Shown one piece after another: positions 4,012 through 64,000 of a stretch of DNA of 64,000 nt. Under the pieces are notes generated by a model. The model was not told where the DNA came from and did not search any database. It saw nothing but the letters and a program-made list of their open reading frames with translations. The translations under genes and the position numbers were made by a program. Source of the stretch: Seison nebaliae (taxonomy: Eukaryota); assembly GCA_023231475.1 (NCBI GenBank), contig JALJEE010000735.1, forward strand, positions 62,001 to 126,000, in the 5' to 3' direction. How positions within the stretch are numbered: position 1 is the stretch's first letter; each line of letters starts with the position of its first letter.

Positions 4012-4620
4012 TCAAATAAATTTATTACTTAAACTTTTGAAAATATTTCTCATCGTTAAATTTTCATCTATAGTATGGGACTCATTATCATCTAAAGAAA
4101 ATTGGAAAAAAAAGATAATTAAAATTGAGAAATAAATTAACTTTCAGTATTATCATCAGAATCTTCGTAAATTTCTTCAACAATATTTTGATTTTCATTC
4201 TTCAATTCTTGCTCTATAAAATTTATTAATTTATGAAGGGAAATGAAAGAACTTTTCTTTAAATTTCTTTGATGGAAACGAATACCCATAAAAACAATAA
4301 TAGTTATCGCTGTCAAACCGGCAGCAATGTAAATATAAACATTTTTATTTTTTCCATTTGCTTCTTCACTTTATATGAATTGTATTTGATTAATAGAAAA
4401 AATTTCAAACTTCCTTTGTCCTTCTCTTCCGACGTTTGGTTTGTCATTAATTTTGTTGTTTTATCTATTATATTAATCCAAGTAAACGGAAAAGTTGTTG
4501 TTCTACTAGTTGTGGTAGTTGTTGTCGTAGTAGTAGTTGTTGTTGTTGTTCTCGTTGTTGTTGTTCTCGTTGTTGTCGTTGTTGTTGTTGTTGTTGTTGT
4601 CGTTGTTGTTGTTGTTCTCG

Positions 4621-4663
<43 letters not shown>

Positions 4664-6269
4664 CGTTGTTGTTGTTGATTTCGTAGTTGCTAATAAATTA
4701 ATAAACAGTTAACTATTTTATATTTAGCAATTCTCACATTTTTTGTAGGAAAAAAATTCGATGATTAAAAATTTAAAATTGGCATAATCAAGTATAGAAC
4801 TTACTTTTTTAACAACATAGTTAGTCTAATAGATAAATATAAATCGATAATTTAAAGCAGCTGTCTTATTTCTCTCATCTGTACACTCTATATTGAATCA
4901 ACCAATAAATATATTTGTGCAATAACTATTTTGTCTAACAACTGTCACAATTCTCAACTTTCATGGTGAGTGAAGATTTTGGTATAAAACTATAGTCACC
5001 GACCCACAATACAAGAAAGAAGATCAATAACTTGTAGAACTATCCGTAGGAGACGTTTTTGTTGTTGTACTTATCGTAAAAATCGTGACTGGTTTTATTG
5101 TTATCTTGGATGTTGTTGTGGGAACAACGACTGTAGGTGCTTCAGTAATTAGTGTTATATTACCGTTGTTCTCAGTAGTTGCAAGATGTTCAATGACGGT
5201 TGGCCGACTAATACTTTGAATAGGATTTGTCACTTCAGTTGTTAACTGTCCTATAACTGCTGTTGAAGTTACAAATTTTAATGTCGGTTGTAATGGAGAA
5301 TGATTTGTCATATTGGAAATTTCCAAAATTTTAATTTTCTCTGTGATATTTGGTCCGGTTGAATTAATAGAAATATCAATCATTTCGTTATTCTTATTAT
5401 ACGTTAAGTCAATTTGTTCGGTGTCGATCAACTTGGACGTTATCGTTGAATTAGCTAAATAATATGGTTTTGTTCCGGTTTTATTATTTATAATATCCTT
5501 GGATATATTTGATGCTTGTTTAGTTGGTGGGTTATTAATAGATCTATTAACGTATTGTGTTTTTCGTTGCCATTCAATTAAAGCTTCATCTTTCTTCGCT
5601 AAGTATGAATTTTGAGTTTCATCTTAAAAAAATTGATGGAATTGAAAATTTTATAAAATGATTAACCATTCTCTATGTCAGATTCATGCGGTCTATTTGG
5701 TAGATGTAAATATTCATAAACTGCAAAAGATGCATCAGTGGTAGTACTTACATCCACTTCTTTCTTAGTTGATGCGAAAAAATCAATTATATCATTCAAT
5801 TCGTTACTACTTGTAAAGAGAATAATAACGGATCGACATTAGAATAATTCACAGAAACTTGTCATCATATCGACTATCAATAGTCGTCGAAGTAGTTTCT
5901 GTTGTCGTTTTCAAAGTTTCTTTAAGAATACTTGTTGTCTTATTGAGCAATGTTAAATTATTCTGCATGAAGATTCTCGTTAATATTCCCATAAATTCTT
6001 TGCTGTATAAATTTTAAATTATATTGTTATTTCTTAAATTTAAAAAGATAAAACGTTTCGTTGCCAATTTTCATCTTAGGTTTATCGTTCAATTTTTTTC
6101 TTTGCTTCATATCCGAAGAATTTTCCGTTTGAAGAGTTTCGTTATCGGTTAGTATCATATCCAAAAGTAAATTAGTTTCATTTTTAATTAAAGAATTACG
6201 GTAAATAATTGATCGAGGGAAAATATGAGAAATTTTATTCAAAATCAATAAAAATGGAATGAAATTCAT
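4012..6269 (-). CDS. Orphan Thr-rich mucin-like type I membrane protein (~544 aa, 8 exons: 6269-6055, 6002-5859, 5809-5667, 5622-5032, 4689-4411, 4363-4253, 4213-4142, 4091-4012)
   Basis: Manual splicing at GT-AG introns gives one open frame of 1635 nt: hydrophobic N-terminus, Thr/Pro-rich region with a poly-Thr tract, TM segment VYIYIAAGLTAITIIVFMGI, basic stop-transfer RFHQRNLKK and an acidic tail. No homology recognised. Confidence 0.7.
4494..4689 (-). repeat. Coding (ACA)n/(GTT)n trinucleotide tract encoding poly-Thr with interspersed Arg
   Basis: Near-pure gtt repeats on + strand, in frame as ACA (Thr) within exon 5 of the mucin-like gene. Confidence 0.9.
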
Positions 6270-6497: not shown

Positions 6498-7368
6498 CTA
6501 ACTTACTTTATCTTCTTCGTATTTAACGTAAACATTTTTCATTCCTAAACAAAAGATTTATCATCCATCTAAATTCAAACAATTGTAACTTCGTTTAAGA
6601 CTATGAATCTTGTAAGTTGTTCCAACGATCATTAATACGATCAATAAAAGCATTACACATCCTATAATCACGTAATATTTATCTGTTGTTGAAATTAATA
6701 TGTGCTAATAATTTCCTTTTAGTGACATGTTAACTTTGGCTAGGTTGTTCGCTCATCAAGTTAATAGTTGTCATATTAGACACCGAATCATTCATTTGAT
6801 GAAGGAGATTTAGTGATTCATGTTTCTCTTGAATTATTCTTTTGAATATATTATCTAACAAAACATCTTGTTCAATTTCCTTATTACTGTTGGTTAAAAA
6901 AAATTTTTAAATGAATAAAGTGAAAAGTTTAATGATTAATTAACTCATTCCATATTGTATTGGCGACATTTTCATTTCTTATTCTCGTCGACATTTCCAC
7001 CAATTTACATTTTTTTAATTGACCATTGTTATATTTTATACAATGATTGTATCTATAAGTCAATATACATTCAATTATACAAAACATAAAATAATCGTTA
7101 TTAGAGTATCTCCACCAACAGTCAATACTGAAATTTTCATTTTGTCTCGGCAGATTAAGTTCATTGTCTAACCGGAGAAATTAGGTAATACTTTCTTATA
7201 TTAAACAATTTAACGAAAAGTTTTTGGGATAAAAAAATATGTTTCTTCAATAAGATCTTTGAACATATTTTCCAAATTAGACGATGATAAACTATTGACC
7301 TTCACCTTCAGTAATGAATATTTGTTAATTTGCATAATGGTCAGGAATATAACTAAAATGAAATCCAT
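6498..7368 (-). CDS. Orphan small single-pass membrane protein (~222 aa, 5 exons: 7368-7215, 7167-6945, 6886-6735, 6682-6590, 6544-6498); absent from the ORF track
   Basis: ATG followed by signal-like MDFILVIFLTIMQ. Four 45-58 nt GTT..AG introns restore a 669-nt frame with a Cys-containing ectodomain, TM YYVIIGCVMLLLIVLMIVGTTY and a short tail ending in TAG. Confidence 0.65.
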
Positions 7369-7777: not shown

Positions 7778-7964
7778 CCCTATCATACAAAATCAGGCTA
7801 AATAACGTCTAATTTTGAGGGTTTAAAAAAATCACTTTATTTAGCGTTTAAATTAAGTGTCTTTAGACCGAAAAGGTGACTAATTAATTATTAACGGTCT
7901 AATTAACCTCTAATTAAATACTCAGATGAGTACTTAAAATCAGACTTGTTTTTGTATGATAGGG
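7778..7964. mobile_element. 187-bp MITE-like element with perfect 15-bp terminal inverted repeats
   Basis: CCCTATCATACAAAA (7778-7792) and TTTTGTATGATAGGG (7950-7964); internal inverted pair TTAGACCG (7863-7870) / CGGTCTAA (7895-7902); flanked by TT on both sides. Confidence 0.7.
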
Positions 7965-7980
7965 TTATTATGTATGTATT

Positions 7981-8880
7981 GTGTTAGAAAGGAAGAAAGG
8001 TAGTAACCCTCGATGGATCTTTATACTATTTTCAAAGGTTTATAAGGATGGGAGTTCAGTGTACTATTGTGAAGGAAAAAATACAACAACAAAATGTCCA
8101 GGAAAGCTGGACGATCAAATTATACGTTCCCAATCTCAAGTCAACCATTCTCATCTACCTGTTCATGAAAAAATAAGAAATCTAGATTTTCTAACTAAAC
8201 AAATTCTAGATCACGGTATTTTAGAAACTAAACAAACGATGAAAAGTAACATAAATAGAGTGCGACAGAAGGTAAATAAAAACACAATATATGAAAACTT
8301 GAAGACCAAATGATTGGAAGATGTAACAATAATATGGAATATCGCTGATATCGAAGAACGCCGAGAGAAAGCGGCTGAATGGTTTTGCGATGGCACTTTC
8401 AAAACCTGGACTATAGTAACACTCCAATTCTCATCCTAATGAAGAACAGAAGTCACCTACCAAGCAGTTATCCAACAAATGAAGGAAACCAAGGAATCGT
8501 CACCAAATATCATATATATCACCCATAGTATTGAAGGGTATGTTAAAATACTGATCGATTATGTAAGAAGTTTGTGTTAGAAATATGAGAAGTGTGGAAG
8601 TTAGATTCGGTAATTTTGTCGGTGCTAAAAAAAACTTTTGTCAAAATGCTTTGCATAATTTGTGACGAATATGATCTAACGAGTTTGATGAAAGACCTCG
8701 AAAATCGATTGTTGAACCAAGAAAGATGGTGGAACTTTGGGAGTAATAGTCGAGAAAGATTGTGGGCCGGTTGATAACCGGCAACATTTGGACGGATTGA
8801 TGGAAAGTTTCCATTGGAAACACCTCGTGAGGAGAAAAGATAATCGTTGATATAATAATTTTAGTCCGCGGGGAGAACGA
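7981..8880 (+). pseudogene. Degenerate Mutator-like (MULE) transposase with an N-terminal FLYWCH/WRKY-like zinc finger
   Basis: YYCEGK..KCPGKL..NHSHLP is FLYWCH-like. AEWFCDGTFKT at ~8372-8406 matches the MULE first catalytic Asp motif (W..DGTFK). WWNF and ESFH-like fragments follow. Broken by stops and frameshifts. Confidence 0.75.
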
Positions 8881-38567: not shown

Positions 38568-41500
38568 TCAGTTTATTTGCAGTTTCACTTTACCTGGAAC
38601 ATTTCGACTTAGATCGTCGTCCTTCATCATTTGTATCATTTCTCTTTCATGTCGATTCGAAATTGACTTATCTTTGACAAACTGTTGAATTGCTTGTTTC
38701 ATCGCTTTCGTTTTCTTCGTTGTTCCCGGTAACAATTTTGCCTTATACTTATACGATTGGAGACATGAATATGGTGCACACACTGAAAGAGCAAATATCA
38801 AGGGGATCGATTCTTCTTTATCATTTGACAATTTCACATCTGGATGTCCTATTAACATTTTCGGGAGTTGTGCCAAATATTCGTCAACTTTCTCATTTGT
38901 TGAATGATCATCAATTTTATCTTCTCCATCTTCATCATCTTCATCTTCATCGATGAAATGCATCTGACCTATATCAAAAAATGGAATCATTAAACTTTCC
39001 ATCATTTGGTAAAATTTGAAAATTTTGAGAAAACTTAAGAATAATCGATGAAATATTAATAACAATAATTATATCATTTATAAACATGATATAATAAGAA
39101 TTAATGAAAATAGCTCAAGATGGAACCTAATCGACTTGTTTGTTCAGTGGTGACGGAATGCATTCCACTCTTCTTCGTTTGTTTCATTCCTTTCATCATC
39201 GTTCGACGTATCCGTTCTTCACGTTTCTTCTTTCTTTCCTTTCTCTTATTTGACTTTTCTTCTCCTAAATTCGATGACCCAAAATTCTTCGTCTAAAAAT
39301 GAATTGAATAAATGAAAAACTGAAGAAGAAGATGAAGAAAAACAGATAAATATTTATTGATCAGTTCCGCATCATCTTTATCGAATTTTGATGGTTTCTT
39401 ATTTTTTTGACGACGAGATTGTTGTTGCTGATTTTGTTTATTTGCCTTATTATCAATAACATTTTTTTTATGATTTGTCGTTTCGTCATGATGAGAACTG
39501 TCAGAACCGGAATCGGAATAAATAATTTGTTTTGTTAAATTTTCGAGAATTGTATTAGGAAATTCTTTTTCTTTTAAGATTTTATCATTCGATTCGGTTA
39601 GTGGAACGGTATTGTTGATGATTATGTTCGAATCATTGGACTGATGGTTTGGAGGAATGGTTTGAGTAGAATGGATGAGTGGAGATGATTCATTATGTTC
39701 ATTAACAACATCAGCTGGTAGAACTTCCTGTTCTGATATCGATTGTCTTTCCTTCTCAAGTGTTTTATCCATTTCCATTTCTTCATTTTCAAGTGTTTCA
39801 TTGATCTCCTCTTTTTCCTTTTTCTCATCAATTCTCTTCTTCTGTTTCGATTGCTCATCATCACTCTCTATTTCCTTCTCCGTCACTTCTTCATACATGT
39901 TGATGGAAGGAAAATAATTTTCGTCAACACAGAAAACTATTCCAAATCCGAAAATTAGCTTTTGTGGAACAAGAAAATTCTTCTTTCCTCGAATGACAAA
40001 TGAACCGGTTGGCAAATATTCACCACTCGGTGCGGTTTTCTGCACTTGATGTGCATACACCCACCATGATCTAATCAACAAATGTTGATCCCATGCTGCA
40101 CTATAAACTATGGCCATCAAACCTGCTTCATTCAAAGTTTTCGGTGGAATTTCTCGATCTAATTTAACACGATCGAATTATGTTTGAAAAATTTAAAAAT
40201 AAGAAACTTTTATATGGATTTTTTATAATGACACTCGATGCTCCATGGAGATCAGCATGGACATAAATATCATTCTCCTTCAAATGTTTCTTGTATACGA
40301 ATTCGTTTTGTTGTTGATCTCGACCTCCTATAAAATAGATATTAGAAGAAGTTAGTGGATGAAAAGTTGAATGGTGAGAATAACCGATCACGAGATATCC
40401 ATCTGATGAGATGAACCAAAGAAACTTTTCGAACCAAAATATTTTTCTGGCTTTTCGTATCTCCGTTGCAATCTGTACATTCTTTATCGTTTCTTTAGCT
40501 GACGAGGAAGAAGAATAAGATTAAAGAATGATGGATTAATATTCATTAATAATAAACCATGTCGTGCTGCATTCTTCAATGCATCTTTCTCAGCTGCTGC
40601 TGTTCGTTCTTGTTTCTCTTTTAACTGTTGTTTCAATTTAAAATATTTCTCAGCATTCGTATAAGCATTCAAATCGATATCAATTATCACTTCAATTGAT
40701 TTAATTTCATTATCTTCTTCATTATCATCATCATCATCTTCTTCTTCATCATCTTCCTCATCGAATGAAGGAGAAAGATTCATAAGAAATTGATTCGTTT
40801 CTAATTTTAGTTTGAGGATTCGTTGAGCATCAATATCACCATTATCTTGACCATCTTCCACCATCTCATTAATCTGTTTCCATGATAATCGTCTACCGAG
40901 TGCTTCACGTAAAATGTTTATACATCTTTCCACACTTTCCACATTCTCAATAATCAATTGTGCTTTCTTCTCATTCTCAATCGATTGCTCCTTCATTTGT
41001 CGTTGACGACGTTCATGATCTTCTTCCACATTCTGCAACTTTTTCAATGCCTGTCGTTGTTGTTGTTGTGCTTTAGCTTCGGTTCGTGCAGATTCGATTT
41101 TTGAAAAGAATTCATCGACAGCAGCTGTATATGAATCGAATTGTAAATAAGAATCGTTCTCATATTGTCGGAAGAGTATTGGAAAGAATTGATCGTATCT
41201 AAAAAAAGAATATTAAGTTCTTTGCATTGATATCGAATTTGATGATATGTTAATTGAATTCGATAGAATTGAGAGAGATGAATGAAGATGAAGAAAATAA
41301 TATGAATTTCTATCGAATTGATAAATGAGGATAAATGATCGAATCAATTGTCTAATTGTTTTTTTTTCTTCTTCTCCTCTTTTTCAATCGATTCCTTCAA
41401 TAGAACACGTGCACTCTATAAACACATTTCACATCCGCTACGTTTGTGAAACAACGACTATTGATTCGACGAAGTGTTGTATAATGAGAGAACTGTATTA

Positions 41501-44500
41501 AAACAGAAGACGATGACAACAACAACAATGATGACGAGCATGATGACGACGACGACGAAGAAGGAGACATTACGAAAACAATAAAAAAAGGTTCGATAAA
41601 AGAAGAAGAAGAAGAGGAATCGATACAAGAATTGTAGAAGCATATTAGAATTGTAGTATTTCTTCACAATTACATCATCACATTTGGAGATCATACATTC
41701 TCATCTCCTTTATGATGGCATCATCATCATGAGTGATGCCATCATCATAAGCATCATTATTCTCATCATCAGTCATTATATTTCTTGGTAGAACGGCGAG
41801 GAAGACATCAATCGATTATTCGAATAAATGTCCTTCACCTAACACACATCCAATGCGAGACATTGCCAATAATAGAATGTGAAGAATGAGCAGAAAAAAG
41901 AAGGAATGACAATATGAAACGAACGGCAACAATTTAACGGAGAAGTCAAAATATTTAACTAGATCATCTTTCTTCCTGACGAGAAGAGAATTTTATTTGA
42001 AATTAATTAATCTTCACCATCATCTCCCAATTGTACCTGTCAAATAAACGGTGTGAACACATCCCTTTTCAACTCCACCAACTGAACAATCATCGTGAGA
42101 ATTGATGACTTATTAAATTAGATCGTGGTCAAATCGGAAGATTTGATTAAAAATATTACCGAATTAATATCAATTCTCACTTCCTCCACCACCAACCACA
42201 CCACCCCAAAATATGCAAATAATTTAATAATTTTTCTGGTTGGAATTCATCAATAAATCATGTTGTGGTTCCATCATTCAATATCGATACCGATTTATCA
42301 AAACTATCATCTCTTCTCTATTTCTCGTTTCAAATAAAACAAAATAATATTATCAGAACACATCGACAACATTGGAGCAGGAGAACAATTGGGATAAATT
42401 AATCTGCATGATATAATATCATCAAATCTATTCTGATTAAATTTCAATTGTTATTATCCATATAATCTTCCGGGAATAATAAGATTTCAATTCGAGAAGA
42501 AGGATAAATTAAAGGGGGAAACCATCATGTATATTGGATCGAGAAGAAAGAGTCGACAGAAAAAGGTTAAATGAATTAACAATTCCCTCACCTCGATACC
42601 TTAGAAAGCTCGATTTATTGTTGTCGGGTGGGTCGATTATGATATCTTTCTACATATCAATTCACCAAATCTTTTCATTAATTCTTGCACAACGAACTTG
42701 TGAGAGAATGCGAAGGATTTGGATAGTGAATGTCAAATTGTTAGAAGAATAGCAGGGCCGAAAAAAAAAAAGGAGGAATGGAATGAGAGCCAATGGAAGA
42801 AATGAGAAGAATGACTGAAATCAAAAGGAGAGAATAGGTGGGGGTGGAACGGTGTAAGGAACTAGAAGAGTAGAAATAGTGAAAGTGATAGACAGAGTAT
42901 GTCGTGACCACACAAAGCATAGCCTTCAATTAAAACGGATAGAATTTGTTCATACTTCGTTCATTAGAGTAAATTGATGGGAGGAAGAAGAAGAAGAAGA
43001 AGGAAAAGAAGGAGAACAAATGGAAAGGTCCTTGTCCCAAATCATTCCATAATAGTCATCAGTTATTGATACATTCATTTCTTAATTCTTTCCTTCGACC
43101 CACCAACACTTCTCATAATGAGTCGGAATATTAACGAATAATGAATCAACAACTAAATAAATCAACAGGAACTTCGTCTACCAGTTCTGTTCGCATAGAA
43201 CGAATTGAAACGATATTCTTATTATCTTACCAATTTCAACATCTTCCATTTTTCTTTTCCTTCTGACGGGATCTTTCAAAACGAACATTATTCTATAGAT
43301 CTACTTAAATTCATTTCGAACAATGAAATGAAATTAGTGGGAGCACAGACGACTCCGTTAGGCAGATCGTTAGGAAAGCGAACATTCTTTACATGTCGTC
43401 TCTCACTTTCCCGTCCCATCTCTCCAATCATCATTATCATTTATCTGGATAAATAAACGGCGAATGTTTCCATCTGACAAATAAATGATGATCAATTATT
43501 GTAGTAAATATCGTCAATAAACAGAAGACAAGAAGAATCAAGAGAATTGTTGAGTAAAAGAATCAGATGTCTGCAGAACTGAAGTTATTCGTCTGATGAA
43601 CTACGTAATGGAAATGAATGAATAAATTATCGGAGTAATAAATGAAATAATTTCAATTTTATCAGATGGATCTACTTCTCATTCAACAACTCTGAGTGTT
43701 TGATTGATCATTAACATCGTTTGCATATGAATAAAGGAAGACGTTATCAGATAGAAGATAGAAATATAATTGTTATGAAAGTATATTTCACACATTCTCC
43801 TCTTTCCATTCTCTATCGTATTCATTAGATTATGATCATTACATAATATTCATTTAAATATATGATCGATATCGATGATCTATAATTGAATTAACTTATC
43901 ATCGAATCTCATTCCACAAGTGTGATTTGCAGGTCACTCTTCTTCTGGAGGAGGGAAAGTGAAGAACGCAGCAGTTCTTATAGAAATATATAAATTTATC
44001 AAAATTCTTTCAACTAATTTCTCTTCCTTCTACAGTTCAATCAATTCTTCGATAAATTCATTAACGAAACCGCTGAAATTGAAGAAAAGGAAGACGAATA
44101 TCAGCGAAAACTTTACAACTCTAAGAAGCGTGCAGAACGTCATAAAAATATTCGTAGATCTGTCAAATCGAAAAAGGAATCACCAGTTGAACGAAAGAAG
44201 AAAGATGTTCTTGTAAATATCGAAGATGAAAAACCGAAAACAACTTTATTGTTTAAGAGATTGTTGAGAAGTAAGAAAATAGGAATAGCGAACAAAGAAG
44301 AAGAGGAAGAGAAAGAAGAAGTGAGGAAGGAGTATTTGAAAGAAACATCGTTAAATCGGAAGGAAGTAATAAGGGTCAAGAAAGAACTCCATTCATATTA
44401 CAAGAACAAATACAGTAGGAAATACCGCGCAGTTTCCGTTCGTCATAAGAGACTGCAACAATTCCTAAAGAATCAGCAATCGACAAAAAAAAATGAATTA

Positions 44501-47500
44501 ACCCAACCGAAAAAGAAACGAATAAGAGTTAACGATTCATATATGGATCTGAATCGATCAAATGATTTACAGAAAATGTCATTCAATGAAGAATCGGAAG
44601 AGACGAATAAAAAAGAAAATAGAAAGATATTTCAATCGAAATATCCTTTAGCCAATTTCGATAATGAAGGTGACATTCCATGTTAGTTGACTTGATCTAA
44701 TTTATTAAAATTTCATTAAATGCATCATCAGATCGAGAAGGACGATCTGGTGGGAAGAAAGCGTTAAGAACAATGAGAAGATTAACACCATCAGGCGATC
44801 ATAGAAAATATCGTCAACATCAATTAAGAAATGCTTCCGCTCATACAACACCGTTACAAAGATCATCATATAATAATTATGCGTTAATGGAACGTGCGAG
44901 ACAATCAAGAAAAAGAAATTTCGAATATCGAAAACGAATGGAGAAAGAATATGATGATATTCCGGTTATTCAACGATCCTTCAGTTTAGCTGTACGGAAA
45001 CCTGAAGGAATTACTCATGTAGAATTGGATGATTATCTCTTGAATACATCGAAGAGATATGGAGTAATTCTAGACGATAAACAAGAATTACTCAATGAGA
45101 AATTAGCAAAAAAGTTACATGAGGATCTGAAGGAAACGCGTTTGAAACAAACAATAACTAAAAGAAATGGATGTGAAAAGAACAGAAAATATTCTCATGA
45201 ATCTCATTCATTATCTACACCGAATTCATCGATCTTGTTATCATCCTCCTTAAAGAAATCTAGCTCCTTATCAATTGACACATTAAGTACTTACTCAATT
45301 TCGACAAAATGTGAAAGATCGACATCTAAATCATCATCTTCCTCAATTTCCTCATCATCCTTCTCATCCTATTCCTTCTCCACACATTCATCCATATCAT
45401 CATCATCATCATCATTCCGATCGATTAGAAGTAATGCTCAATCAAATTCCTCTACATTATCACAATCAGGAAGTTACTCATCAAAATTATCATACAGCTC
45501 ATTGTCGATTGGAGATATACCACCGAAAACTAGTCGAAATAAGAAGACTGAATTGAGAAGGAAAGGTAAATTATCGACAAAACAAATATTGAAACAGAAA
45601 GAAGAGAAGAGAAAAGTTTGTCATTAATATTCTTCCAAATCAAACTTTCAAATTATGTGAATGACTTACCGTTCTAATCAGTTATGAGGACATCTCTGAT
45701 AAAGATCGTTTCGATTAAGCAACAGAGAATCATTCATCATATTTCTCCTCTTATTATTATTATTATTATTAATATATTGTTCCTTCTTTTCTAAATCATT
45801 ATCTTAATTTTGTTCTTATTCTTATTTGATTCTAATGTATCTCCTTCATGAAAAGGAAACAAATCGACGATTCCTTTCCAAGTTCACCAATAAGAAACTA
45901 CCTCCCATACAAATTTCAAAAAAGAAACCAATTTTTGAAAAGTCTCCTGATCCCAACGATACAAGAAACAAATTATTGGATCGAAAAGAAAATGTGAAAC
46001 AACTGCCGTTACCGCCGAACCAAGCGGAACGCTTGGCAAAACGACGAAAAGACCGAATTTGGGCGATGGCAAAAGTTTTGCTGAAACATCTCTTCTCACA
46101 AATCGGCTTAAGTGGATTGGTCGTTGTTTATGTGATGTTAGGTGGATTTATTTTCGACGCCCTCGAATCAGGTTATGAAAGTAAATGGCAACAAAAAAGT
46201 CGCATAGCGCGAGCGGTTTATTCTTCGTTTAGTTATTAAGAGTAATGACAATATTTAAAAATTTGTCGATATTTAGGGATTTATTACGGAAATGATGAGA
46301 TATACAGAAGGATTAGTTGCCGAACGTTATGGGATGCCAATTCGATTAACATTAACAAATTATTCTTATGTTCTTGGTTAATAATAATAATAATAATAAA
46401 TAAATCTCTTTAAATTATTTATTTAAAAGGAACGAGATTAAATGACTTCCTTGCTGGTGATATTCATTATGAGAAAAGTGATATTATGGACGCATTATTG
46501 AAACCGATTATCATGCCCGACATGTCCAAGACGAATATTCAAGCTACATGTCAACAATTCTGTTCATTAGATTCTCATCAACAACCAACAATCAATTTAA
46601 AGAATAATAGTAGGAATCTCTTTCGAATTCAAAGAATTCGACGAGAAGTAACAAAAATTTTGAAAGATACCGTGAGAGAAGAACGTCAAGTGAAATCGAC
46701 CGTTATATCGACAAAAAAACCGGCAGTATTGAAAGATGTAAATGATGTGAATGATGTTGAAGATACAGAAATTTGGACATTTGCAAGTTCCATGTTATAT
46801 TCAGCCACCGTTATTACGACAATCGGTTAATTTTTCCCTATTTCATTCTCACCAATGATTTCTTTATTCGCTATTACAGGTTATGGGAACATCACACCAA
46901 AAACGGATTGGGGCAAAATTGTGACAATAATTTATGCATTATTCGGTATTCCATTGATGTTCATGTGTCTGAACAATACCGGTGACATGTTGGCGGACAT
47001 CTTCACCAAATGTTATACAATGTTCATCAAATGTATATGTCATCTTATATGTTGTCATACATGTCGGAAGAGTGGAAAGAAGAAAGAAGAAATGAACACG
47101 ATCACAGAGAAAATTTCGAAGGAACAATTACTGAAACAAAAGGATGTTGATGATATGACTGAATTGGAGTTGTTACAAACGAAATTATATGAGATAAAAG
47201 ATTCTTTCAAAAACGCATCGAACTGGTTCCATATTTCAACATTACCCAACTTTATCATACAACCGACAAGTATTAAGAGACCAAATATAGATCCGGAAAA
47301 GTTCTTAACTTCACCACCACTTCTCAAGAAACAGATTTCCGAATTCGCCAATGAGAAATTTAAAGCCATCTCTCCATCTCTATGTAGCGTTGGTGGATTG
47401 AGACGACAAATGAAGAATGAAGAAAGAAAAAAAAGTAAATTATTGAACAATGTGGAGAATGATGAGGATAAAACGACTTGTATGACATCAAGTCAATGCT

Positions 47501-50009
47501 CTCAATCGACAACTACACATGTGAACACTCCGAAACTGTTAGAAGATCAGACGAAATCGATTGAAAAGAAATCGAGAGTTTTAAAAAAGAAATTGAAATC
47601 AATGTCGAACAGTAAGTCGTTGGAGAAACAAAAGTATCAAAGTGGAACTTTATTTCTAAAACTGTCAAAAGAACATATTAATATGTCGCCCTCTCTCAAA
47701 TTCTTATCTGTTCCATCGATTGGGAGACGAGATCGATCGTTTGATTTACAGCAACAATCATTCAAATCGATTAGTATTCATAGTCCAACATTTCGCTCAC
47801 ATGGTAAACGATCAAAAGAAAAAATTGGAAAGGAAAATAATGAGAAATATTTGGCAACTATTCTTCCATTAGAAGAAGAGACGAAGAAGAAAGATGAGAA
47901 GAAATTAGAAGTTCAATCGATTTCCGAAATGAAATCATCGATGGATGAAAATAAATTAACGATATCAGCTATTACATCACAACAACATTCATCGGAGAAT
48001 GTTGAAAGTAAAAGTGTAAAAATTAGTACCAATACAACAATGATTACATTGACAGACAAATCGGACAAATCAAAAGAAGAACAACAATCAAATAAAATGG
48101 AAAAGAAGAAATATAAGAGTAAGAGAACTCCATCAAAACATCGTCATAGACACAGAAGATATCCACACTCTTATGATAAAAGGAGGAAATATGAAAGTCG
48201 CTCACATGGAAGTAAACGAAGTAGAAGTAGAAATCGTACGAAGAAACGAAGGAGAAAAGGATCTCAAAGGAAAAGTGAAGCAGCGAAAAATTCACATTAT
48301 GGATATGATTATTATAAAATTATGAAAGAAAGACAACAAATGGATGTTCGTTCATTTCTAGTTATAATATGAAATTTTAAATCTCTCTTTCTAGAAACAA
48401 CCAGTTCATGTACCAATTCTCGCTTCTCTCGGGATATTATGTGCCTATATATTCAGTGGTGCTGTTCTATTCGGAGCATGGGAAAATTGGACGTTATTAG
48501 ATGGAGCTTATTTTTGTTTCATAACATTCACATCCATCGGTTACTTTCTTCGAAGGAAATATTTAAAGAAATTTTATAACCTTTCTTTAGGCTTTGGAGA
48601 TATGGTACCTGGGAAGGGTTCACTCGATGGATCATCGGCAGAAAAAGCAGCATTATGTTCTCTTTATCTATTATTTGGAATGGTCATAATGGCCACGTGC
48701 TTCAAAGTTTTCATTTTCTCTCATTTTCTTCTGACTATTATTATTAACTTTGCAGTTGATGCAAGATGAAGTTCTAGCCAAAGTGAAATGGCTCGCGCAA
48801 AAAATGGGAATTATCGAATAATTTCATACCTCACACTAATTCCTATTTATTTCCCTTTCCTATTCACACAAAATAATTGGACAGTTTTCTAAATAAAGTT
48901 TCCGATCTTGTATCTGATCGATTTCTTCATTTATTTTATACGAACCTTCGAATTTTATTAGGACGTCCCACAATTTCACCCGCATCTTTATCCAAATGGG
49001 AATTGAGCATTTTCTCAAATAAGATAGTGCTTTGTTTATGTCCATCTCCATCTAATGCTCCCTGTGATATAACACTCTCTTCCGTGAAAGTGATATATCC
49101 TTTGGTGGAGGACATATGTTGGATTTCCATCAATTCATCATCACAATCACATAACGATTGATAAATATCAACATAATCTGAGAATCGTATGAAATATTGA
49201 AATATTAAAAGAACTAACATTTCTCTTCAACTTCTTTCAATTTTATATCAACTGGAATTTTCCGTTTCATCAAACAATGAACAATCAACTGTTGACCAAA
49301 TACTAATAGATAAATTTGTAAATTCATTAATAAAATTGAAAGAAACCATATTTCTTCAATAAAACTTTTCGGAGGAATTCTTGTGGTTTACATTCTTTCA
49401 AGAAAACTTTCATTCTAAGAAAATCAAAAATTTTCCATCAAAACACAAATGGAACTTTTCAAAATCATCATTTGATCTTTGTCCATCCAATTTCATTAAC
49501 GGTTCTAATGTTCGCGCTTGAGACAAATCGTAAATTTGATGTTTCGTTTCAAAACAATCGTTCTCCAATTGTCGTTTAATTGTATGTCGACGAAATCGTA
49601 ATTGATGGAGTATTTCATATGAACTGTTCGTCAAAATAATGTTTCCTTTCGCGAATAATTCGAGTATGATATGTGTCTCCACTTCACCCGAACCGAATTG
49701 GAAATCAATGATTCGATCAATCGATCCCAACTGTGTGATCTTTTCCAATCGTTTCCCTTTCAAATGCTTCCTCAATTTCATCGAGAATGACGATGGCATA
49801 TCATTCTTTTTCCATTCAAAATTTGTTACATGAAATCGAGCACCACTCTCCAACAACAACATCGATCTACATTGTTTCGCCATTTGGAATTTGAATAAGT
49901 AAACTTTTTGATCGATATCATAAATGTTGACGAGTCGAAAAGATTGGAAAGTTTTTTTCACGTCCTGCAAAGCGACCATTAGGTCGACTCCACTGAACTT
50001 TAATTTCAT
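38568..50009 (-). CDS. NEMF: Ribosome quality-control factor NEMF/Rqc2/Caliban (~1064 aa, 10 exons: 50009-49456, 49414-49347, 49302-49219, 49177-48946, 41198-40558, 40498-40385, 40327-40208, 40158-39344, 39292-39127, 38968-38568)
   Basis: NFACT-N ([27 protein letters not shown]), [70 protein letters not shown], and C-terminal [16 protein letters not shown]. Spliced frame is 3195 nt. Confidence 0.93.
43567..48821 (+). CDS. Two-pore-domain (K2P/TWiK-family) potassium channel nested antisense in NEMF intron 4 (~1422 aa, 12 exons: 43567-43583, 43666-43697, 43933-43973, 44036-44681, 44732-45615, 45856-46215, 46277-46376, 46430-46825, 46880-48345, 48395-48539, 48591-48706, 48756-48821)
   Basis: M1 [24 protein letters not shown]1 [27 protein letters not shown]2 [11 protein letters not shown]3 [22 protein letters not shown]2 [22 protein letters not shown]4 [20 protein letters not shown]. 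The channel core (45856-48821) is high confidence. The first five exons are frame-consistent but lack homology support. Confidence 0.85.
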
Positions 50010-50180
50010 TTCGTCTGTCCAAAATAAAAGGGAGATAATAAATTTTTCAAATTAATTTAATTAAAAATTTCAATAAAATATTCTCAGAAAAAAAATTATG
50101 AAACTAAACATAAAAAACGATTCTTCTTTCATCTGTTATGAAGGAGGAGATAAAAAGCGAAAAAAGGAAGTGAAATTCTT

Positions 50181-51206: not shown

Positions 51207-52429
51207 GACGGTGAATTGTATTGCGTCTATGATAAATGTACGATGATGGATGTCGTATCTTTTCGATTTTGAGACAAGCCTAACTTACAATTAATTCAGT
51301 TGAGCAATTCAAATTTCATTTCGATTTAATCAATGTTAATTTTTTAATTATGTCTTAATATTTTGAATGTATTACAGTTTTCACGTTATAATCACATTCT
51401 TCTAATACAAATCGAGGAAGTTATGTCATATTCACTAGAAGTCCATATAATTCATTAGAAGTCTCTCATTAAACTTTCGTCGATAAGAAATTACTTAAAA
51501 TTATTTATCTGAAGTATATGGAAATTTCTTATTTAAAATGGTTATCTATCATTGCAAGAATATATTGTATTTATTGAAACGAAATTTATGTACACAATTT
51601 AAATTAAGCTTTACCCTTTCTCTCAAACTTTCAAAAATTCACATTTTAATTTCTTTTTAACTGAACGAAAATTAATTATGACATTGTCATAAAGTATTAT
51701 AAAGAGAACTCAAATGTGTGCCTCTTTGAATAATTTGCGAAGTTTGAAATTCGAACGTTAAAATTGTTAAGAATAAGAAAATTTGATTATTTTTCGTTAG
51801 ATATTTTCTCTAGTTAAATATTCTGATTTTGGTAAAAAATTAAATTGAAAAAGATGGAAAACATTCTATGAGTAGAAAGTGATGAAAATAATGAAAAATG
51901 TTTATTTAAACGAGTAATTTAGATTGAATAACGCATCCGAAACTTCACTTAAATTCGAACCGTATTTTAACAATTTTTGCGATAATTCAAATATCGATGG
52001 ATAAGAAGTCATACATTCTCCAAATGAGGATATATTTAGATGGATCGTCATTGAAATTAATATGTGAACGTCACTTCTATTTATCTTCACTTACGCAATA
52101 TTTATTGAGCTAACGTAACAAGTAGAGATTCTAATTTTGTTCGACCACTCCTAAATCGGATGATGTGTAAGCTCTTATTTTCAATAGATTCTTCCATTAG
52201 ATCCGTCACCAATCATGTTCAGATCTTTTTAAATGAACTTCAATGACGATTTGGAACGGAACAACCTTCGGTGGAAAACTTTTAGTAAATTCTCAACGAA
52301 TAGTATAGATAAATTATTCGGAACAGACTTATTTCTACAAAATTCGCCATTATTAGATAAACTAATTCTTAATTATCATTCTTACAAATCATTCTTTCTT
52401 AATCAAATTCATCATTCTTATAATACAAA

Positions 52430-53645
52430 ATGGAATTCGCTGATTTTTCTACTCAACTCTCTTGTGGAATACTTTTTGGTATTTTTATGGAGAAAGGCAA
52501 TGGTTAAATTGATTTTAATAAAATTGTATTGTAATTCATAAAATTTTAGTTCACTTACCTCAAGTAATTAGAGCTCAGATGCATTTTGATTCACTTGTTA
52601 TGATGAAAATGTTCTTAAGCGCTATGGCCGCCAGTTCCTTCTCTTTTGCCTTACTAAGTTTAAAATCTCAAAATATGCGAAGCATCATTGAGGGACACCG
52701 AAAACGAATGATCAGAACTTCAATTGTAAAATTTGTAAGTGGCGGCGCTTTTCTAGGAATGGGAATGGCCATATGTGGATCATGTCCAGGCACAGTGTAC
52801 GTTCAATTGGGCACTCTTTCTTGGAGGACGTTATTTGTCTTTCTCGGATGTTTATTAGGAGGATATGGTTATTCTCATGTAGATAAGTTTTATCCGGAAA
52901 ATGACAGTGGCAAGTTCCTCGGACTTACTTCAAATCGATTATTGTTAGGAAAAGGAAATTAAATTTTTATTCATTTACTAAAAATTATTCACTTATTATA
53001 GTGTCAGTGACATTTTGCAACAACCATTCCACATAGTTTGTTTTGGTGCCAGTGGAGCATTATTGATATTGGCCATATTATTGGAAATTTTTAGTCCTTC
53101 GACGGCGTCAATTTTTGTTTAATTTTTTTTCTGTTAAGTCTCTCTAAATATTTTGTGTCTTCTATTAGTCTGAATTTTCGTCGAATAGTTGGAATCCTGT
53201 AATTTGTGGTTGTCTTGTTGGTTTGCTACAAATCCCGATGGTTTGGTTCTCATCCACTCGATTGGGAGCATCCGCATCATTCTTGTCAATAGTGGGTTAT
53301 ATTTCTCCTCAAATGAGAAATGATTACGTGAATCGATTTATGGATAAATCGTCATTACGTCAAATGTTGTTTAGTACTGCTATCACATTTGGTTCGTTTC
53401 TCTCACTCTATCAATTAACGGGAGAGAGTACGTGGGAATTTAATGATTCAACATTATCATATGGAACACCTGGAATAATTTCCTGTATAATAGGAGGCTT
53501 CCTCATTGTGTTTGGAGCGCGTGCTGCTGGTGGTTGCACATCTGGACATGGTCTTTCCGGAGCGGGATTATTATCTTTTCCATCACTTCTGGTTGTCGCA
53601 TCAATTTTTGGCGGGGGAATTCTTACATCTTTATTATTTATCTAA
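52430..53645 (+). CDS. YeeE/YedE (TsuA-like) sulfur/thiosulfate transporter family membrane protein (~352 aa, 4 exons: 52430-52502, 52550-52943, 53002-53116, 53169-53645)
   Basis: GILFGIFMEKG.V..P.VIRAQM..MMKMFLSA, GGAFLGMGMAICGSCPGTVYVQLG and GGFLIVFGARAAGGCTSGHGLSG are the two Cys-containing YeeE/YedE motifs. Spliced frame is 1059 nt. The intron 2 donor could alternatively be at 52914 (also GTT). Confidence 0.85.
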
Positions 53646-56600: not shown

Positions 56601-58744
56601 AACAAAAAACTAGTTCAAAATAAAAGATATAACGCCTAGTTGAACATCTATGTCCCTATAAGTTCCCAATCAATCTGAATTTGTATGTATATGTGTCTGT
56701 GTGTGTGTTACATCTTTTATGTATTCAATGCTGCCGATTATGTAAAGGTTAAAAGGACAAGCACCTCCACTTCTTCCACAAATTTCCTTCTTTCACAAAA
56801 CGCAACATCAATTTCATTTTCACATATTCTCCCTTCGACAATAACGAACGTGTCCCCATAATTTTTGTGTTTTCGAAACAAATTATCGAATGATTCTTAA
56901 TAGATAAATTTTTGGTGGAATGGTCCTTCTTCTTCCTCTTGTCAACTTTCTACTATAGAAACGTGCTTACTCATTCGACATACAACTAGTGTTGTGCGAA
57001 AGAAGAGAAAAAAAATTTGTGTTTCCGGAACAAAATTGTGATATCAGTATTCCTGAACATCCTGAACATACATTGTTCATATCTATACAATTCTTTATAA
57101 TCTTCCAATTTTGTTCCATAGTATTCATTCATTAATAATAATTCCATTGATCAATTTCCATGTGATGGTAGTCGAACAATTTTCCCTAATTCTCCGCAAC
57201 ATACTGACTATATAAGTTCTGAATCTGAATTATAAGTTATCGGAAAGGAAAAGAGGTCAATTACAAAAGTTCTTGTGCATTGCGGCTAAAATTTCTTTTA
57301 CTCTATCGACTGTTCATCATTTCAAGGACTTTCCGCCTTGAATTTGTCGAAGTGTAGAGAGAATGTTACGTCTAACATACGGATGAATAAATTAATAGGT
57401 TCATTCTCTTTCACATATCTTCGTTCCCATTGATGGTTATGCTATCGCGTAGGAGTTATCACCGGCTGTGGGCGAACACCCACAGACATTCAAGGAAATT
57501 CTGGAACTATTGGAAGCGTAATTTTTGTTTTTATTATAAGATGGATCTCTTCTTTTTTTCTTTACAGAAATTTAATATTATATCGAAGAACTTCGATCGT
57601 GTTGATTGATGGGCTATTTTAATGATATTCCCTCTTTTCTGAATCATCATTACTCATTATTATATTAATTTCAATATTTGACGAAATAGATATTTTTCAC
57701 TTCTCTCACCTCTGTGTCTAACCTTTTACACGAGGAGAGGAAGTGAAATTGAATACATTCTTCGACAGTAAACAATCTTTTCAAATAGATAAATTTTGAG
57801 GAAAATAAATCGAAATAATTTGATCGATAAATATTACTCAATAATATGAATTGGAAGGAATGTTAAAGAAATAATCCATTACAATGCTATAAATAAAAGA
57901 GGTTTTGATTGAACGTCTTCTCCCCATGTTGTAGATAAAGGACAAATTGATGAAATTAAAAATGAGGAAACATTTGCCTATTATCCAACACTATATTCAA
58001 GTAACCATTTGACCTGTTCAAGAACGGTCACGTAATTCTCTGTTCATTTTTATTCGATTATTATGGTGATTGCCCGTATATTTTTTTGTTTATTGAAAAT
58101 GAATCGAACCGATATTCATTCGAACGAATAGTATACTGAAGGTTTCTGTCGAATCATACTATCAATCCTTCTGTCTAAATTATGCACAAACATCAACACA
58201 AAATAAACGAAATAAACAAAATGGGGTACCCATCATCCTAAAAAAATTAAACAACATTCCTTTTATTCTTTCCTGTTATCTGATTATCAAGATTTATATT
58301 CGCCTATCATATTAACTTTTTTTGTTGGTAGGAGAAGGAATAGATGGTAATTTCCTCATCTCATCTTCCTTAATCCGTATGGCGAAAGTGTCTTTGTCAC
58401 AAAACAAATGAAAGTGATTTGTGAGTTTTAAGAAGAAGCATTGGAAGCAGACTTTGTATATTTTTCGCCCAATTTTTCGTCACTTCTTCTTATATCCTCC
58501 TACCAACCCCGCACAGCGAGGCGACGACCAAAATAACTTATTCACCAAATCTACTTCCTGTATTTGATGCAATTTGGGGGAAGAATAATTAATAATATAT
58601 TTTTCTAATATTTCGATTTATATTTTAGGAAAGAAAATAATGACACAAAATTTCTGTGGTAGTTGTCATCATAGTAATAATATTTGTCGTAGTAGTAGTA
58701 TTTGTGGTTGTGGTAATATTAGTTGTAGTAGTGGCGATAAGAAA

Positions 58745-58812
58745 GTGTGAGTGTGTGTGTGTGCTTGTGTGTGTGAGTTTGTGTGTGAGTTTGTGTATAT
58801 ATATATATATAT
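58745..58812. repeat. (TG)n/(TA)n microsatellite
   Basis: Visible directly. Confidence 0.85.
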
Positions 58813-61168
58813 GATCAGATAGGTCTAACTAAAAGTATACGTAATATTGGAACAAGTAGTTGAGTATGTAGACCTCTTCACTTCTTTTCCAATTTTTAAT
58901 TCTTCTTCTTTTCTTCCATCTAATAAAATTTGAGTTAATGTTATTTCCTCATTCTTAATGCTCTTTGCTCCTACCATCCAATATTATACAAATATCCACT
59001 AAATTTTAAGCACATTCACGCAGTATATCACTGATATCAAATCATCTACATTTCACACATAATAATACTAACACAAATGTGAAAGGAAGATGAGTCTCAT
59101 CACCATTCGAGTTATCATTCACCTTTAATAGTTACGGTTAACTTACTTTATTGAACGATTTCTATTAAAATTTTACATAAGAGGAAATATTTCGTAGGGT
59201 AATAATGATAATGATGATGTAATCAGTATGAAGTCGTGAATAACGACTATTCGATCACATCAGATAAATTTCCCATTCCATTTCCTCCTCCCAATCCAGG
59301 AACGTTTTGAGTGACCAACCGATATCGTCCTTTCAATAATCGTTAAATAAATAAATTTTTCTATTTCCTCCACGTTCTCGTTCAATGTTAATCACGTAAT
59401 GATTTTGATAACTCATTCGGTTACCCATCTAAATGATCATTGGTTAAAATTCGACATAAACGGAAGGAATTGATGGGAACGTTACAGTAATTATTATCTT
59501 TGTTTACTTCCCGGTTATATCGCTCTCTAACTCTTTAGTATTCCTGACTCATCGACCACTTTTCTGACATAAACGATTTTCAAATGTTTTTCCTCTTTTC
59601 TCTTCTCTATTCAGCCCCATCGAATGTGGGAAGCTCTTCATTCCTATTTCATCACATTACGTATCGGTGAAATAATCGTCATATCTACACATGTAGTCGT
59701 CGAGTATTTCCTGTAGTAGAAGACTAATAATTTATCATTCATTTATTTACATCCGTCTACCACATGGGAAATTGTATATACGACAACAGACATGTACTGG
59801 CTAGAAGTATAAACAAATAACTCTCATTCACCACCACATTCTCATACTATGAATCTATATATAATTACATATATCTACATTCATGTGTATAATTGTGTAT
59901 GTTAGTGTGTGTTTATACGTAACTATTCCTACATCATATCTAATCATCATGAGTATGGTGAACGTATAGAGAACTTTGGTTGACAGGGCACTGAACGGTC
60001 AAAAAATTTCCTTTTCATTCTTCCTCCTTCTTCTCTCCCACACTTTTTTTTGGAGAGGAACTGGCCGATTCTATTATATTATACCGTCATTCTACGGTCC
60101 AAAGTCTTCCGCAATTCTCTCTCAGTTCTTACACAATATGTTCCCAATGCATGTCGATGGAGAAAAGTCTCTTATGTAACGTTCCATTTTCTTTCCTTCT
60201 TTCATTATATCACTACTACTACTACTACTTACTGTCTGTGATCACGACCACGGCTACTATACCACCAACTGTATTTGTAGTCCACTATCATCTTCGTCTT
60301 ATTCAATTACGATTAACATATTACCTCTGTGGGTGGTAAGGCACTTAGCATCAAAAAAGATCAATTTATGAAAATTTCTTCCAATTCGAAATTCCTAATC
60401 AATTTAAATTTTTATTACTACCATTTGTTATGGAAAAAATGAATGTTTTCCTTCATCTTCACTCGTTGATGTTGTTGTCCACAATATCGTCTTTCCAATG
60501 ATTTGAGGTTTCTATATCGTTCATATCTTCTCTTTCACTTCGTCTACTTCATCTTCACTCGTTTTCAACATTTATTACGTAATTAGCCGAACGAACAGAT
60601 GCAATGGAGAATAACAGTTCTTCCTTCTTCCGCTATGGACATCTCAGCGAACAATTATTATTTTCCTCAATAATTATTTCCAGTTTTTCTCCTTAAATAA
60701 TTACGCTTTTTTTCCTTTTTTTTTGTCTGTATGTCATGATGGTATTATGTTGGCAATTCGACTTCCTCAAATTGATGTCGGAAGTAGAGAGATATTTCTC
60801 CTCAGACCATATCGTTGAGGGGGTAGGGGGAAATGGACAATGTATTTTATTTTATTGTTCCCCATTTTCTTTTCATCCTTTACGATAATTATTTGTAATT
60901 TTTCTTTTTATACAATTTCATCCAACAGACATTATTGTCCTTTACATCATTGATTAAATTATTTATTTTTTCTTCTCATTCTCAGATTAGGTGAAAGACT
61001 CAGACAAAAATAGTTTGATGAGTATATTTATAAGTTTATGTGATAATTCCATCATCGAATAACATCAATTACAATTAGATGACATAGTTGTTAATTAGAA
61101 ATAACAACAATAGTTCTTCGACAACAATTTGGCATTTGAACGACGAGTAATCGTCGTTCACGCTGATA

Positions 61169-64000
61169 ATGCACGTTAATATTTCTTCTGATACGACGAT
61201 AATTATTCATAATAACGGTGAAAGAATAAATAATAATTCAGAAAGTTGTAACAACAATAACAGCAATAATAATAATACTACGAATTTGGAAGAAAAAGAA
61301 AAGACGAATAAGAAAAGTAATTCGTCATTATTTGATATTGACGAAGGGAAATCGAGGAATTTACCATCATCACCCTCATCACTCAGTGACCAACAAGGAG
61401 ACACTGAATTAGAAAAGGATTTGGAGAAAGATAATATTTCTTCAGATTTATCTAATAACAAATTATTCTTCATTGATACATCTGAAGAAAATTGTAAAGA
61501 AATTAGAAGAAATTGTTTTAAAACAAAAAAATTAGAAATTGATTATCCTCGTGTCGCCATGTCAACGACATCATCATCTGATGAGGAATCATTAATTTAT
61601 GAAGATCATAATATGTCATCCATCATCACTTCAAGTAGTAACATCATTCCTCCATCAATCGCCACTACCATCACCACACCAACAACAACAACATCTTCCA
61701 CATTCAATTTGGATCGTCGACGAAAAGTTAAAAGAAGAAATAAGAATAATCGTCGTGAACGTGTCTCTTTTTTAAAATTGGAGAATAAAGAAGGAAATAA
61801 ACAACATCAAAGAAGACCTCAAAGTGAATCATCATCTTTATCATCAGGAGAGAATGTTCAATATAGACACCATCCCAGAAGATTGAATAAAAAGCAATTG
61901 GGAAGTCGTTATCAATCAGCCGACGCACTTTGTTATTATGATTCTTTAAACAAAGTCAATGAACAAAATACTAAAAATAAAATTTCCAGTGAAAATGAAT
62001 ATAGTCCCAACATTAATATCATGCAAGACAATTCCTCATCTTCCGATCAACCAGACAACTTGAAGAATGATACTAAAGGAAAAAATTCGACTACCTCCGT
62101 TGCCGATTATTTCAATTCCAAATTATTTTCTAATGATCATTTCGTTTGTGCAATTTGCAATGCAACATTCACAATGTCTGATATTCCCAAATTTGTTAAA
62201 CACAAATTGGAACATCGACAAACGTTAATAGAATCACCGACGAAAAACATGAAAACTGACCAAAAGAATCAAGAGGATTTTAAAATGAAATTATCCATCA
62301 TCGATAAACGATATGCATGTTGTTGGTGTGAATTCATTTCAAAGAATCCAATCCGTCTTAAACGGCATATGCAAGAAGAACATCAGATTGATATTCCTCG
62401 AACTAATACTGAACATTCATCCACAATTACCTCTACAATTGTTACGCCGACTCTCTCATTACCTCAATCTATCAATCGAACTGATATTACTTCATCATTT
62501 CCTCTGACAGTCACATCTCTCTATGAATCTAATAGTTGTTCGATAAAACCTGAAGAAGTAAAAGAAATAAAAAATAATGAAATATTTCTTGGAAATCAGA
62601 AAGAAGAGAAAGAGAAAATTGTAAGCACAGAACCAATTCGAACAGAAACGAATTATTTGTTGACACTTCCCAAATTTCGACGATTATCTTATTTGAAAGA
62701 TAAAATGAAATTCGGTTCCGTAAAGAAAGTTATATCACCAGAAAATGAAGAAGAAACGATTGAAACATCATCGAAATCTCAGTCATTCGCATTCCAACGA
62801 CCTCAATTATCATCATCAAATAAACCGATTGTAAAACCGATAAATCTCGATGTTAATGTCGTTCAATTATGGGAGGCAGTTCAGTCAAGGAATTTTGATG
62901 AAATTATTGAATTGTTATCAATTGAAAGTAATGAAATTTCTAGTGACATCGATCAAAAAACAAAGAAATTAGAAAAAATTAAAAAGGAGAAGATTGGTGA
63001 TAACGAGGAAGATAATGAAAGGAAAAATATTTCCAGATTGTTATTACAACAAAGTATTCGTTCAATTTTAAAACAAGAATTGAAAGCAGAAAATCTTTTA
63101 GATGAAGATACGAAAACTAATGAAACACTTCCATCACTTACTTCACCATTAATCGCATCAGTTGTTCAAGTGAAAGAAGAATGTGTTTCTCCCAAACTTG
63201 ATTCATCATCCAAATCATTCTCATCCTCATCCTCATCAGACGAACAGAATGATAATGTTGAAAGAATACCAAATCTAAAAGTACGACAAGCTGTTCGATT
63301 ATTACAGAGATATCTTCGACAAACTACCATTAATGATTCGAGTTATGAGTCTTCAACCTCCACACCATCGTCTTCATCATCGAACGGACATGAACGAAAC
63401 AAAGAGAAAGAGAATGATAAATGCCAAAAATTATTGAATTTGAAACATATGGATAAGTTTAAGGAGTTGATGGAGAAGGTGGAGAGTAGATATGTTGCTT
63501 CGAAACGGAAAAATTCTTTCTCATCCGTCATTAAATCACTTGGTGTGAGTGAAGCCAAACAGAATAGTAATGTCTCCTTGTCACCAGTAACAGTGAAAAC
63601 GCAAATTGTGGGACCAGGCCAAGAATTACGTTTACCAATTCCATTTTATGAACAACTTCATACGAAGCCGTCGTTGTTAGAGAATCAAAATTCGATGATG
63701 AATCAATCATCTGTTGAAAAATCATCGATATCTATCGATAGGAATTCACCTTCACATATAAAGAAGATGGATGATACAAGTGGAAGTGAAAATAGTAGTT
63801 GTAGTAGTTCGTTCGCTCCCGGCACTACCACGACTACTAGTGACAATTCGGAGAAGACGAGTGATTCCAATGGCTCTTACGCAGTCCACTCTCAATTATC
63901 TCAAACGTTAATTTTTGAGTTTAAATCTATTCTTTTTCATTTACATTTATTTTCACATATTCAGAAGAAATATCGGTTATAAAGGACGAATGACAAGAAC
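61169..64000 (+). CDS. C2H2 zinc-finger transcription factor, tentatively BCL11-like; continues past the window via intron 63907-63964
   Basis: FVCAICNATFTMSDIPKFVKHKLEH (~62141-62215) resembles the BCL11 N-terminal finger (C..C...F...DI..FIEHK). YACCWCEFISKNPIRLKRHMQEEHQIDI is a second finger. The ORF tail LIFEFK.. reads as an intron (GTTAAT..TTCAG) with an open frame after it. Confidence 0.65.

Follow-up and report, generated by a model that had tools for sequence, protein, structure and literature searches.

Does the rotifer Seison nebaliae mark the start of its introns with a donor code of its own? Few signals of animal splicing are as stable as the purine at donor position +3. A 64,000-nucleotide (nt) stretch of AT-rich eukaryotic DNA from this seisonid rotifer (contig JALJEE010000735.1, positions 62,001 to 126,000; hereafter the window) raised the question, since the original prediction held that every intron in it, 35 of 35 in six genes, starts with GTT. 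We rebuilt 32 of these introns, nine in the gene for NEMF, eight in that for a K2P potassium channel, three in a YeeE/TsuA-like transporter gene, seven in a mucin-like gene, four in the gene of a small transmembrane protein and one in a zinc-finger-like gene. All 32 started with GTT and had GT..AG ends, and the feature is real in the window. The seven donors that had been quoted with coordinates were all found there. The three 5'-most K2P introns of the prediction (GTTAT, GTTTG, GTTCT) were not verified; the deposited model has a single 1470-nt GTT intron (42566-44035) in that region. The word "every" holds for this one window and not for the genome, throughout which a GTT rule is, in our judgement, very probable.

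The rebuilt introns were short, 28 of the 32 being 39-61 nt long, and all 32 had U2-type GT..AG ends with a pyrimidine-rich 3' end. No donor had a purine at +3, so the canonical metazoan GTRAG consensus is absent, and none had C, although C makes up a quarter of the intron pyrimidines (p ~1e-4). Downstream, the donors were far less uniform: +4 was A in 16, T in 11 and C in five, and never G, as had been predicted; +5 was A in 12, G in seven, C in seven and T in six; and +6 was T in 21, A in eight, C in two and G in one. The commonest start was GTTAA (9/32), and GTTTG occurred twice. When intron composition was taken as the background, A at +4 (p=0.03), G at +5 (p=0.009) and T at +6 (p=0.03) were enriched and T at +5 was depleted (p=0.002), all four p values being given without multiple-test correction. 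The predicted relaxation of +5 G sets Seison apart only in part: this G is still about three times as frequent as the intron background, and the bdelloid-like donors described below have it in half of the cases. On the exon side, -1 was A in 12, G in 11, T in six and C in three, 15 of the 32 donors had neither -1 G nor +5 G, and A filled 51 of the 96 positions from -4 to -2, against a coding background of 38%. Acceptor position -3 was T in 18, C in nine and A in five introns, with T-rich sequence upstream, and no clear branch-point consensus emerged in the rebuilt introns. GTT was not avoided in exons (70 of 157 Val codons). Two special classes of intron were rejected. The donor motif of U12-type (minor) introns is RTATCCTY; no rebuilt intron starts with it, and its 10 occurrences are not at these donors. 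An all-versus-all comparison of 31 introns for introners (transposon-derived introns) gave only AT-rich matches of 12-22 nt.

The set of 32 was put together with the predicted list known and is therefore partly circular, and 12 of its introns were placed by frame alone. We used less circular tests as well. In the first of them, protein profiles built without Seison sequences scored all in-frame pairings of a GT or GC donor and an AG acceptor, up to 60 nt around the expected sites, at 14 NEMF and K2P junctions and three YeeE junctions; the candidate sets held 1-14 members, and those of NEMF and K2P were bounded by chosen anchors. GTT was firmly placed at 12 of the 17 junctions (a margin of at least 10 bits, or zero non-GTT candidates) and led by merely 3-4 bits at three (49455, 46216 and 53117); the remaining two, which sit in the poorly conserved NEMF tail, were tied, a non-GTT site being ahead by at most 0.5 bit (GC 39370 versus GTT 39343, and GTC 39135 versus GTT 39126). 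T follows GT at 234 of 588 non-donor GT sites in the same genes (0.40), GTT is the commonest GT trinucleotide, and intron bodies are 46% T. The probability that all 12 firm donors, on both strands, are GTT is ~2e-5 with the 0.40 background and 1e-4 with intron T content.

A blind parser, which ignores positions +3 to +8 and whose intron-body and acceptor model was trained on 11 window introns without donor positions, gave GTT in 30/34, 29/30 and 28/29 introns at three penalties (an earlier version was dropped because it over-spliced known exons). The lone GTC at the two higher penalties falls where NEMF was forced to stop before a 7.7-kb intron, and two GTA introns and one GC intron were called too at the lowest penalty. 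Its YeeE parse was identical to the deposited protein. The exons of NEMF, K2P and YeeE match the NCBI proteins SNEBB_003075, SNEBB_003074 and SNEBB_003076, respectively, and the three deposited models translate exactly from the window; they have GTT in 16 of 16 introns, with no other placement within 12 nt. One of these introns joins NEMF to an ABHD11-like gene and is probably false. The choice of GTT even at this doubtful intron hints that the donor model of the annotation was trained on GTT. Two sequencing runs (X1, X2) cover the introns as DNA would and are not informative on expression. Protein searches, within their length limits, turned up no Seison copy of NEMF, K2P or YeeE that derives from a transcript.

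For comparison with related animals, a metagenome contig scan yielded 67 K2P loci, of which we kept those that reached 55% identity or more with proteins of bdelloids, "bdelloid-like" denoting the best hit only. Duplicates, loci below 55% identity and junctions with a margin below 8 were excluded; two of the excluded bdelloid-like junctions start with GTT. The 46 distinct, well-placed donors comprised 35 GTA, six GTG, one GTC, three GTT and one GC, and are not independent, as they come from few intron positions, related species and near-identical alleles and probably include a few false junctions. The shift of the donor consensus is supported by the contrast with these genes: +3 was A or G in 41 of the 45 GT donors of these loci, versus none of the 32 in Seison. 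Judged by these sequences, related animals with similar short introns retain the +3 purine. Their donors (loci L001-L039) had +5 G in 23/46 and +6 A in 28/46, and rotifer donors may be weak in general. The idea that bdelloid-like and Seison K2P genes share intron positions proved wrong at the 13 control junctions inspected, and the conversion of ancestral introns in place is thus unsupported.

The DNA runs also hold low-depth contigs that differ by 17-19% in exons, mainly by A>G and T>C, and fit the higher-GC strain A described in PMC8351084. Aligned blocks of this second lineage end exactly at +3 of two donors (46218 for donor 46216, and 52946 for donor 52944); further blocks end at 46829, which is +4 of donor 46826 and was reached in two runs, and, for donor 48540, at 48543 and 48551. 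The alignment reaches through +3 at all four donors where a block ends among the 30 of 172 pieces listed. Other blocks start 5-11 nt inside acceptors, and others end within exons. Of 34 third codon positions in one YeeE block, 17 differ, and so do 8 of the 13 T found at third positions, so that the apparent retention of T at the four donors, with bases deduced from block edges, lends modest support to the rule (p roughly 0.02-0.06). Some blocks that align to the divergent contigs lie mostly outside called exons (42526-42587, 43018-43179, 43446-43513, from 51276, and ~52060-52080) and are possibly regulatory elements or uncalled exons.

Among the spliceosomal proteins scored for Seison is ZMAT5, a minor-spliceosome protein. 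In the BUSCO table of PMC12256650, METTL16 is scored missing in Seison only among 25 syndermatans; each of the remaining 24 species has it as either present or fragmented. The same table scores PRP8, PRP6, PRP31, SNU23, MFAP1 and SNRNP27K as complete in Seison, SNRNP40, LSm2 and SF45 as missing, and ZMAT5 as missing in Seison and both acanthocephalans. The switch of +4 to U, a trait of METTL16 loss, was not seen in the window.

How could U at +3 be enforced? The +3 base faces position 6 of U1 small nuclear RNA (snRNA) and then G44 of U6. An altered recognition machinery in the Seison lineage would be the natural inference from these donors. We tentatively favour an account in which the introns are ordinary short GT-AG introns with +3 T in every firmly placed case, the GTT rule likely extending genome-wide. 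The major spliceosome would hold an adenosine opposite +3, most likely at the 5' end of U1 (ACUUAC changed to ACUAAC). With METTL16 apparently lost and the U6 helix weak at +4 and +5, the +3 pair and the contacts of U5 with the exon end would be left as the chief donor signal. As a whole, this account has close to, and slightly short of, an even chance of being right. The lack of +3 C favours A over G as the partner, and the residual bias to +4 A, +5 G and +6 T (a weak GTTAGT) suggests the usual consensus with one base changed. The donors matched canonical U1 at a mean of 4.38 of nine positions, versus 5.17 for bdelloid-like donors (p=0.004); with the one-base variant the Seison mean was 5.38, not different from 5.17 (p=0.37), although the gain of one match arises by construction. 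In Entamoeba, 96.9-98.5% of donors are GUUUGN; U1 is complementary to them there, and the U6 box has not changed (bioRxiv 10.1101/2022.06.08.495308). This precedent, the lack of +3 C and the match to the variant together favour a change in U1.

Several points weigh against this account. The majority of lineages whose donors have changed retain a canonical U1, among them 227 Saccharomycotina genomes (PMC10581693), several protists (bioRxiv 10.1101/2022.06.08.495308) and Fritillaria borealis, in which the U1 end and U6 box are conserved (PMC13326754). Pairing at one base with U1 gives slender ground for strictness in 32 of 32 donors, nearly half of which have neither -1 G nor +5 G. A BUSCO absence is soft evidence: of the 954 genes, 356 are scored missing in Seison, and 76 are missing there and in no other species of the table (PMC12256650); as METTL16 is one of the 76, its absence may be a detection failure. 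METTL16 loss elsewhere accompanies +4 U, yet A is the commonest +4 base here (16 versus 11 T). The evidence base, moreover, is one window with six genes, read as DNA alone.

The score of METTL16 as missing keeps alive two other explanations of the strictness. One retains a canonical U1 and places the selection of +3 U at the hand-over to U6, either by a change of U6 G44 to A, which would pair with +3 U, or by an unmethylated normal box that uses a G44-U wobble. The change to A would, in addition, disrupt the motif that METTL16 targets. Proofreading takes place at the hand-over, which suits the strictness; the contact of +3 with U6 G44 is described as weak (PMC11732430). METTL16 is scored missing in Seison only (PMC12256650), and GUUUGU could pair better with U6 according to Roy and Bowser (bioRxiv 10.1101/2022.06.08.495308). 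However, the U6 box is reported as invariant across 240 fungal genomes (PMC10581693) and is kept in Entamoeba (bioRxiv 10.1101/2022.06.08.495308) and Fritillaria (PMC13326754), the wobble should permit the +3 C that none of the 32 donors has, and +4 has not switched to U. We regard a U6-centred cause as possible but rather unlikely. Less likely still is that all snRNAs are canonical and that diverged proteins (U1C, LUC7, PRP8, SNRNP27K or a new RNA-binding factor) pick +3 U. Protein or modification changes explain donor shifts in yeasts (PMC10581693) and tunicates (PMC13326754), Seison proteins are very divergent (the N-terminal part of NEMF is 36-60% identical to other eukaryotes), and SNRNP40, LSm2 and SF45 are scored missing. 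Against these stand the six complete proteins listed above, from PRP8 to SNRNP27K (PMC12256650), and the literature examined describes no change in a protein by which the +3 preference turns from a purine to U.

It appears improbable that GTT prevails only locally, or merely as a result of AT richness and of the way gene models were chosen, in a genome with mixed +3 bases. Such a reading can draw on the frequency of GTT and of intron T given above, on the introns placed by frame alone and on the two tied junctions; however, the 12 firm donors on both strands, the 41 GTA and GTG donors obtained by a similar method from bdelloid-like loci, the GTT picked even at the doubtful fusion intron and the second-lineage blocks that cross +3 at all four donors argue against it. 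The least credible reading takes the donors as sites shifted by one base, which a canonical U1 would read in a shifted register. GTTAA as the commonest start fits this, but a shifted register predicts +6 G, which occurs once in 32 donors, not above background, and +6 is mostly T.

We compared the donors with known systems. The likeness to Entamoeba lies in a near-universal +3 U on GT-AG introns (32/32 in Seison, in the window only). However, Entamoeba is intron-poor, whereas Seison genes have up to nine introns each in the window; Entamoeba fixes +4 U, +5 G and +6 U as well, whereas Seison fixes +3 only (GTTTG in 2/32); and the U1 change is reported in Entamoeba but is a proposal in Seison. 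In Saccharomycotina, switches of +4 from A to U are linked to the loss of METTL16 and SNRNP27K (PMC10581693). There, too, the shift concerns one donor position, and METTL16 is scored missing in Seison, but the Seison shift is at +3, +4 A is still the commonest base and SNRNP27K is scored complete. Fritillaria borealis is likewise an animal with changed splice signals, having non-canonical introns, a genome-scale change and reduced U6 N6-methyladenosine (m6A) (PMC13326754). In Fritillaria the terminal dinucleotides are relaxed although the snRNAs are conserved and METTL16 is kept, whereas Seison keeps GT-AG and tightens +3. Metazoan donors in general form two groups, AG/GUNNN and NN/GURAG (PMC11732430). 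Seison resembles them in having GT-AG ends, a mild preference for -1 G, exon ends rich in A and T-rich acceptors that mostly end in YAG, but no donor fits GURAG and 15/32 lack both -1 G and +5 G.

A transformed donor consensus is of a known kind, and what is notable here is its occurrence in an animal and the fixing of +3 only. A literature search that reached a minority of subscription journals turned up no account of GTT donors, whether for Seison or for another animal. We consider it somewhat more probable than its contrary that a compensatory substitution in a core snRNA (at U1 position 6 and/or U6 G44, the latter tied to METTL16 loss) converted the whole Seison intron set from GTR to GTT, leaving a donor code of little beyond GTT, the first such 5' splice-site rewiring in a metazoan. 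In the literature examined, switched donor codes belong mostly to intron-poor microbes, with few introns to change together. If true, the fixing of +3 U and the loosening of +5 in an animal whose genes hold up to nine introns would mean that a code can sweep across many introns, and would reveal which step enforces +3 (U1 pairing, the hand-over to U6, or m6A43). Gene finders with borrowed splice models would be expected to mis-annotate the Seison genome.

Table 1. Genes, donors and selected introns in the window (positions counted from its first nucleotide).
Feature	Position	Strand	Basis and remarks
NEMF gene	38568..50011	-	nine introns; Pfam NFACT domains, junction scoring, blind parser; first three donors also in deposited P0001
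NEMF donors, all GTT	49455, 49346, 49218, 48945, 40557, 40384, 40207, 39343, 39126	-	39343 and 39126 tie with a GC and a GTC site
NEMF intron 4, 7747 nt, GTTCG..TAG	41199..48945	-	sole in-frame candidate, 43.5 bits; K2P gene inside on opposite strand
K2P potassium channel gene	42527..48821	+	exact mapping of deposited P0113; profile scoring; blind parser
K2P donors, all GTT	42566, 44682, 45616, 46216, 46377, 46826, 48346, 48540, 48707	+	
K2P intron in first pore motif, GTTAA..CAG	46826..46879	+	126.4 bits versus 76.1 for next donor (also GTT)
K2P intron in second pore motif, GTTAC..TAG	48540..48590	+	172.9 bits versus 124.1 for best non-GTT
K2P intron GTTTA..TAG	46216..46276	+	weak profile margin; second-lineage block ends at 46218 (+3)
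YeeE/TsuA-like sulphur transporter gene	52430..53645	+	PF04143; donors 52503, 52944, 53117, all GTT; blind parse equals deposited P0164
YeeE intron 2, GTTAG..TAG	52944..53001	+	leads best non-GTT by 16 bits; second-lineage block ends at 52946 (+3)
Mucin-like membrane protein gene, 3' end approximate	4007..6269	-	frame and blind parser alone
Mucin-like gene donors, all GTT	6054, 5858, 5666, 5031, 4410, 4252, 4141	-	4252 found at one penalty only
Small membrane protein gene, 3' end approximate	6500..7368	-	donors 7214, 6944, 6734, 6589, all GTT; frame and blind parser alone
Intron ending long zinc-finger-like exon (open reading frame 61151-63982), GTTAA..CAG	63907..63964	+	sequence reading, without homology support

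The gene structures show further features. The entire K2P gene lies antisense within the 7747-nt NEMF intron (41199-48945). In the deposited annotation NEMF is already divided and merged with an adjacent gene: the model omits the 7747-nt intron, shortens NEMF and links the 5' half of NEMF with the ABHD11-like gene upstream by way of the doubtful intron, which is 171 nt long (50185-50015).

Elsewhere in the window, a Pfam scan covered 150 of the 485 open reading frames of at least 45 amino acids. Long intron-free frames were found at 2-1246, 1830-3950, 50184-51206 and 33137-37105 (Pfam); their products are a class II (Asn-like) tRNA synthetase, an RFWD3-like RING-WD40 protein, an alpha/beta hydrolase and a 1322-amino-acid protein with two homeodomain matches, which we presume to be SATB/dve-like. 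No convincing Pfam match was obtained in the frames scanned from 9000-33000 and 54000-61000, where short exons may escape, and the 64,000 nt had no Rfam family match. A 116-amino-acid frame at 7963-8313 on the forward strand has a Cys/His pattern that by eye resembles a transposase zinc finger remnant, with no Pfam match. Homologues of the YeeE/TsuA-like gene (52430-53645) occur in molluscs, brachiopods, echinoderms and bdelloids, indicating that this gene is not an isolated bacterial transfer.

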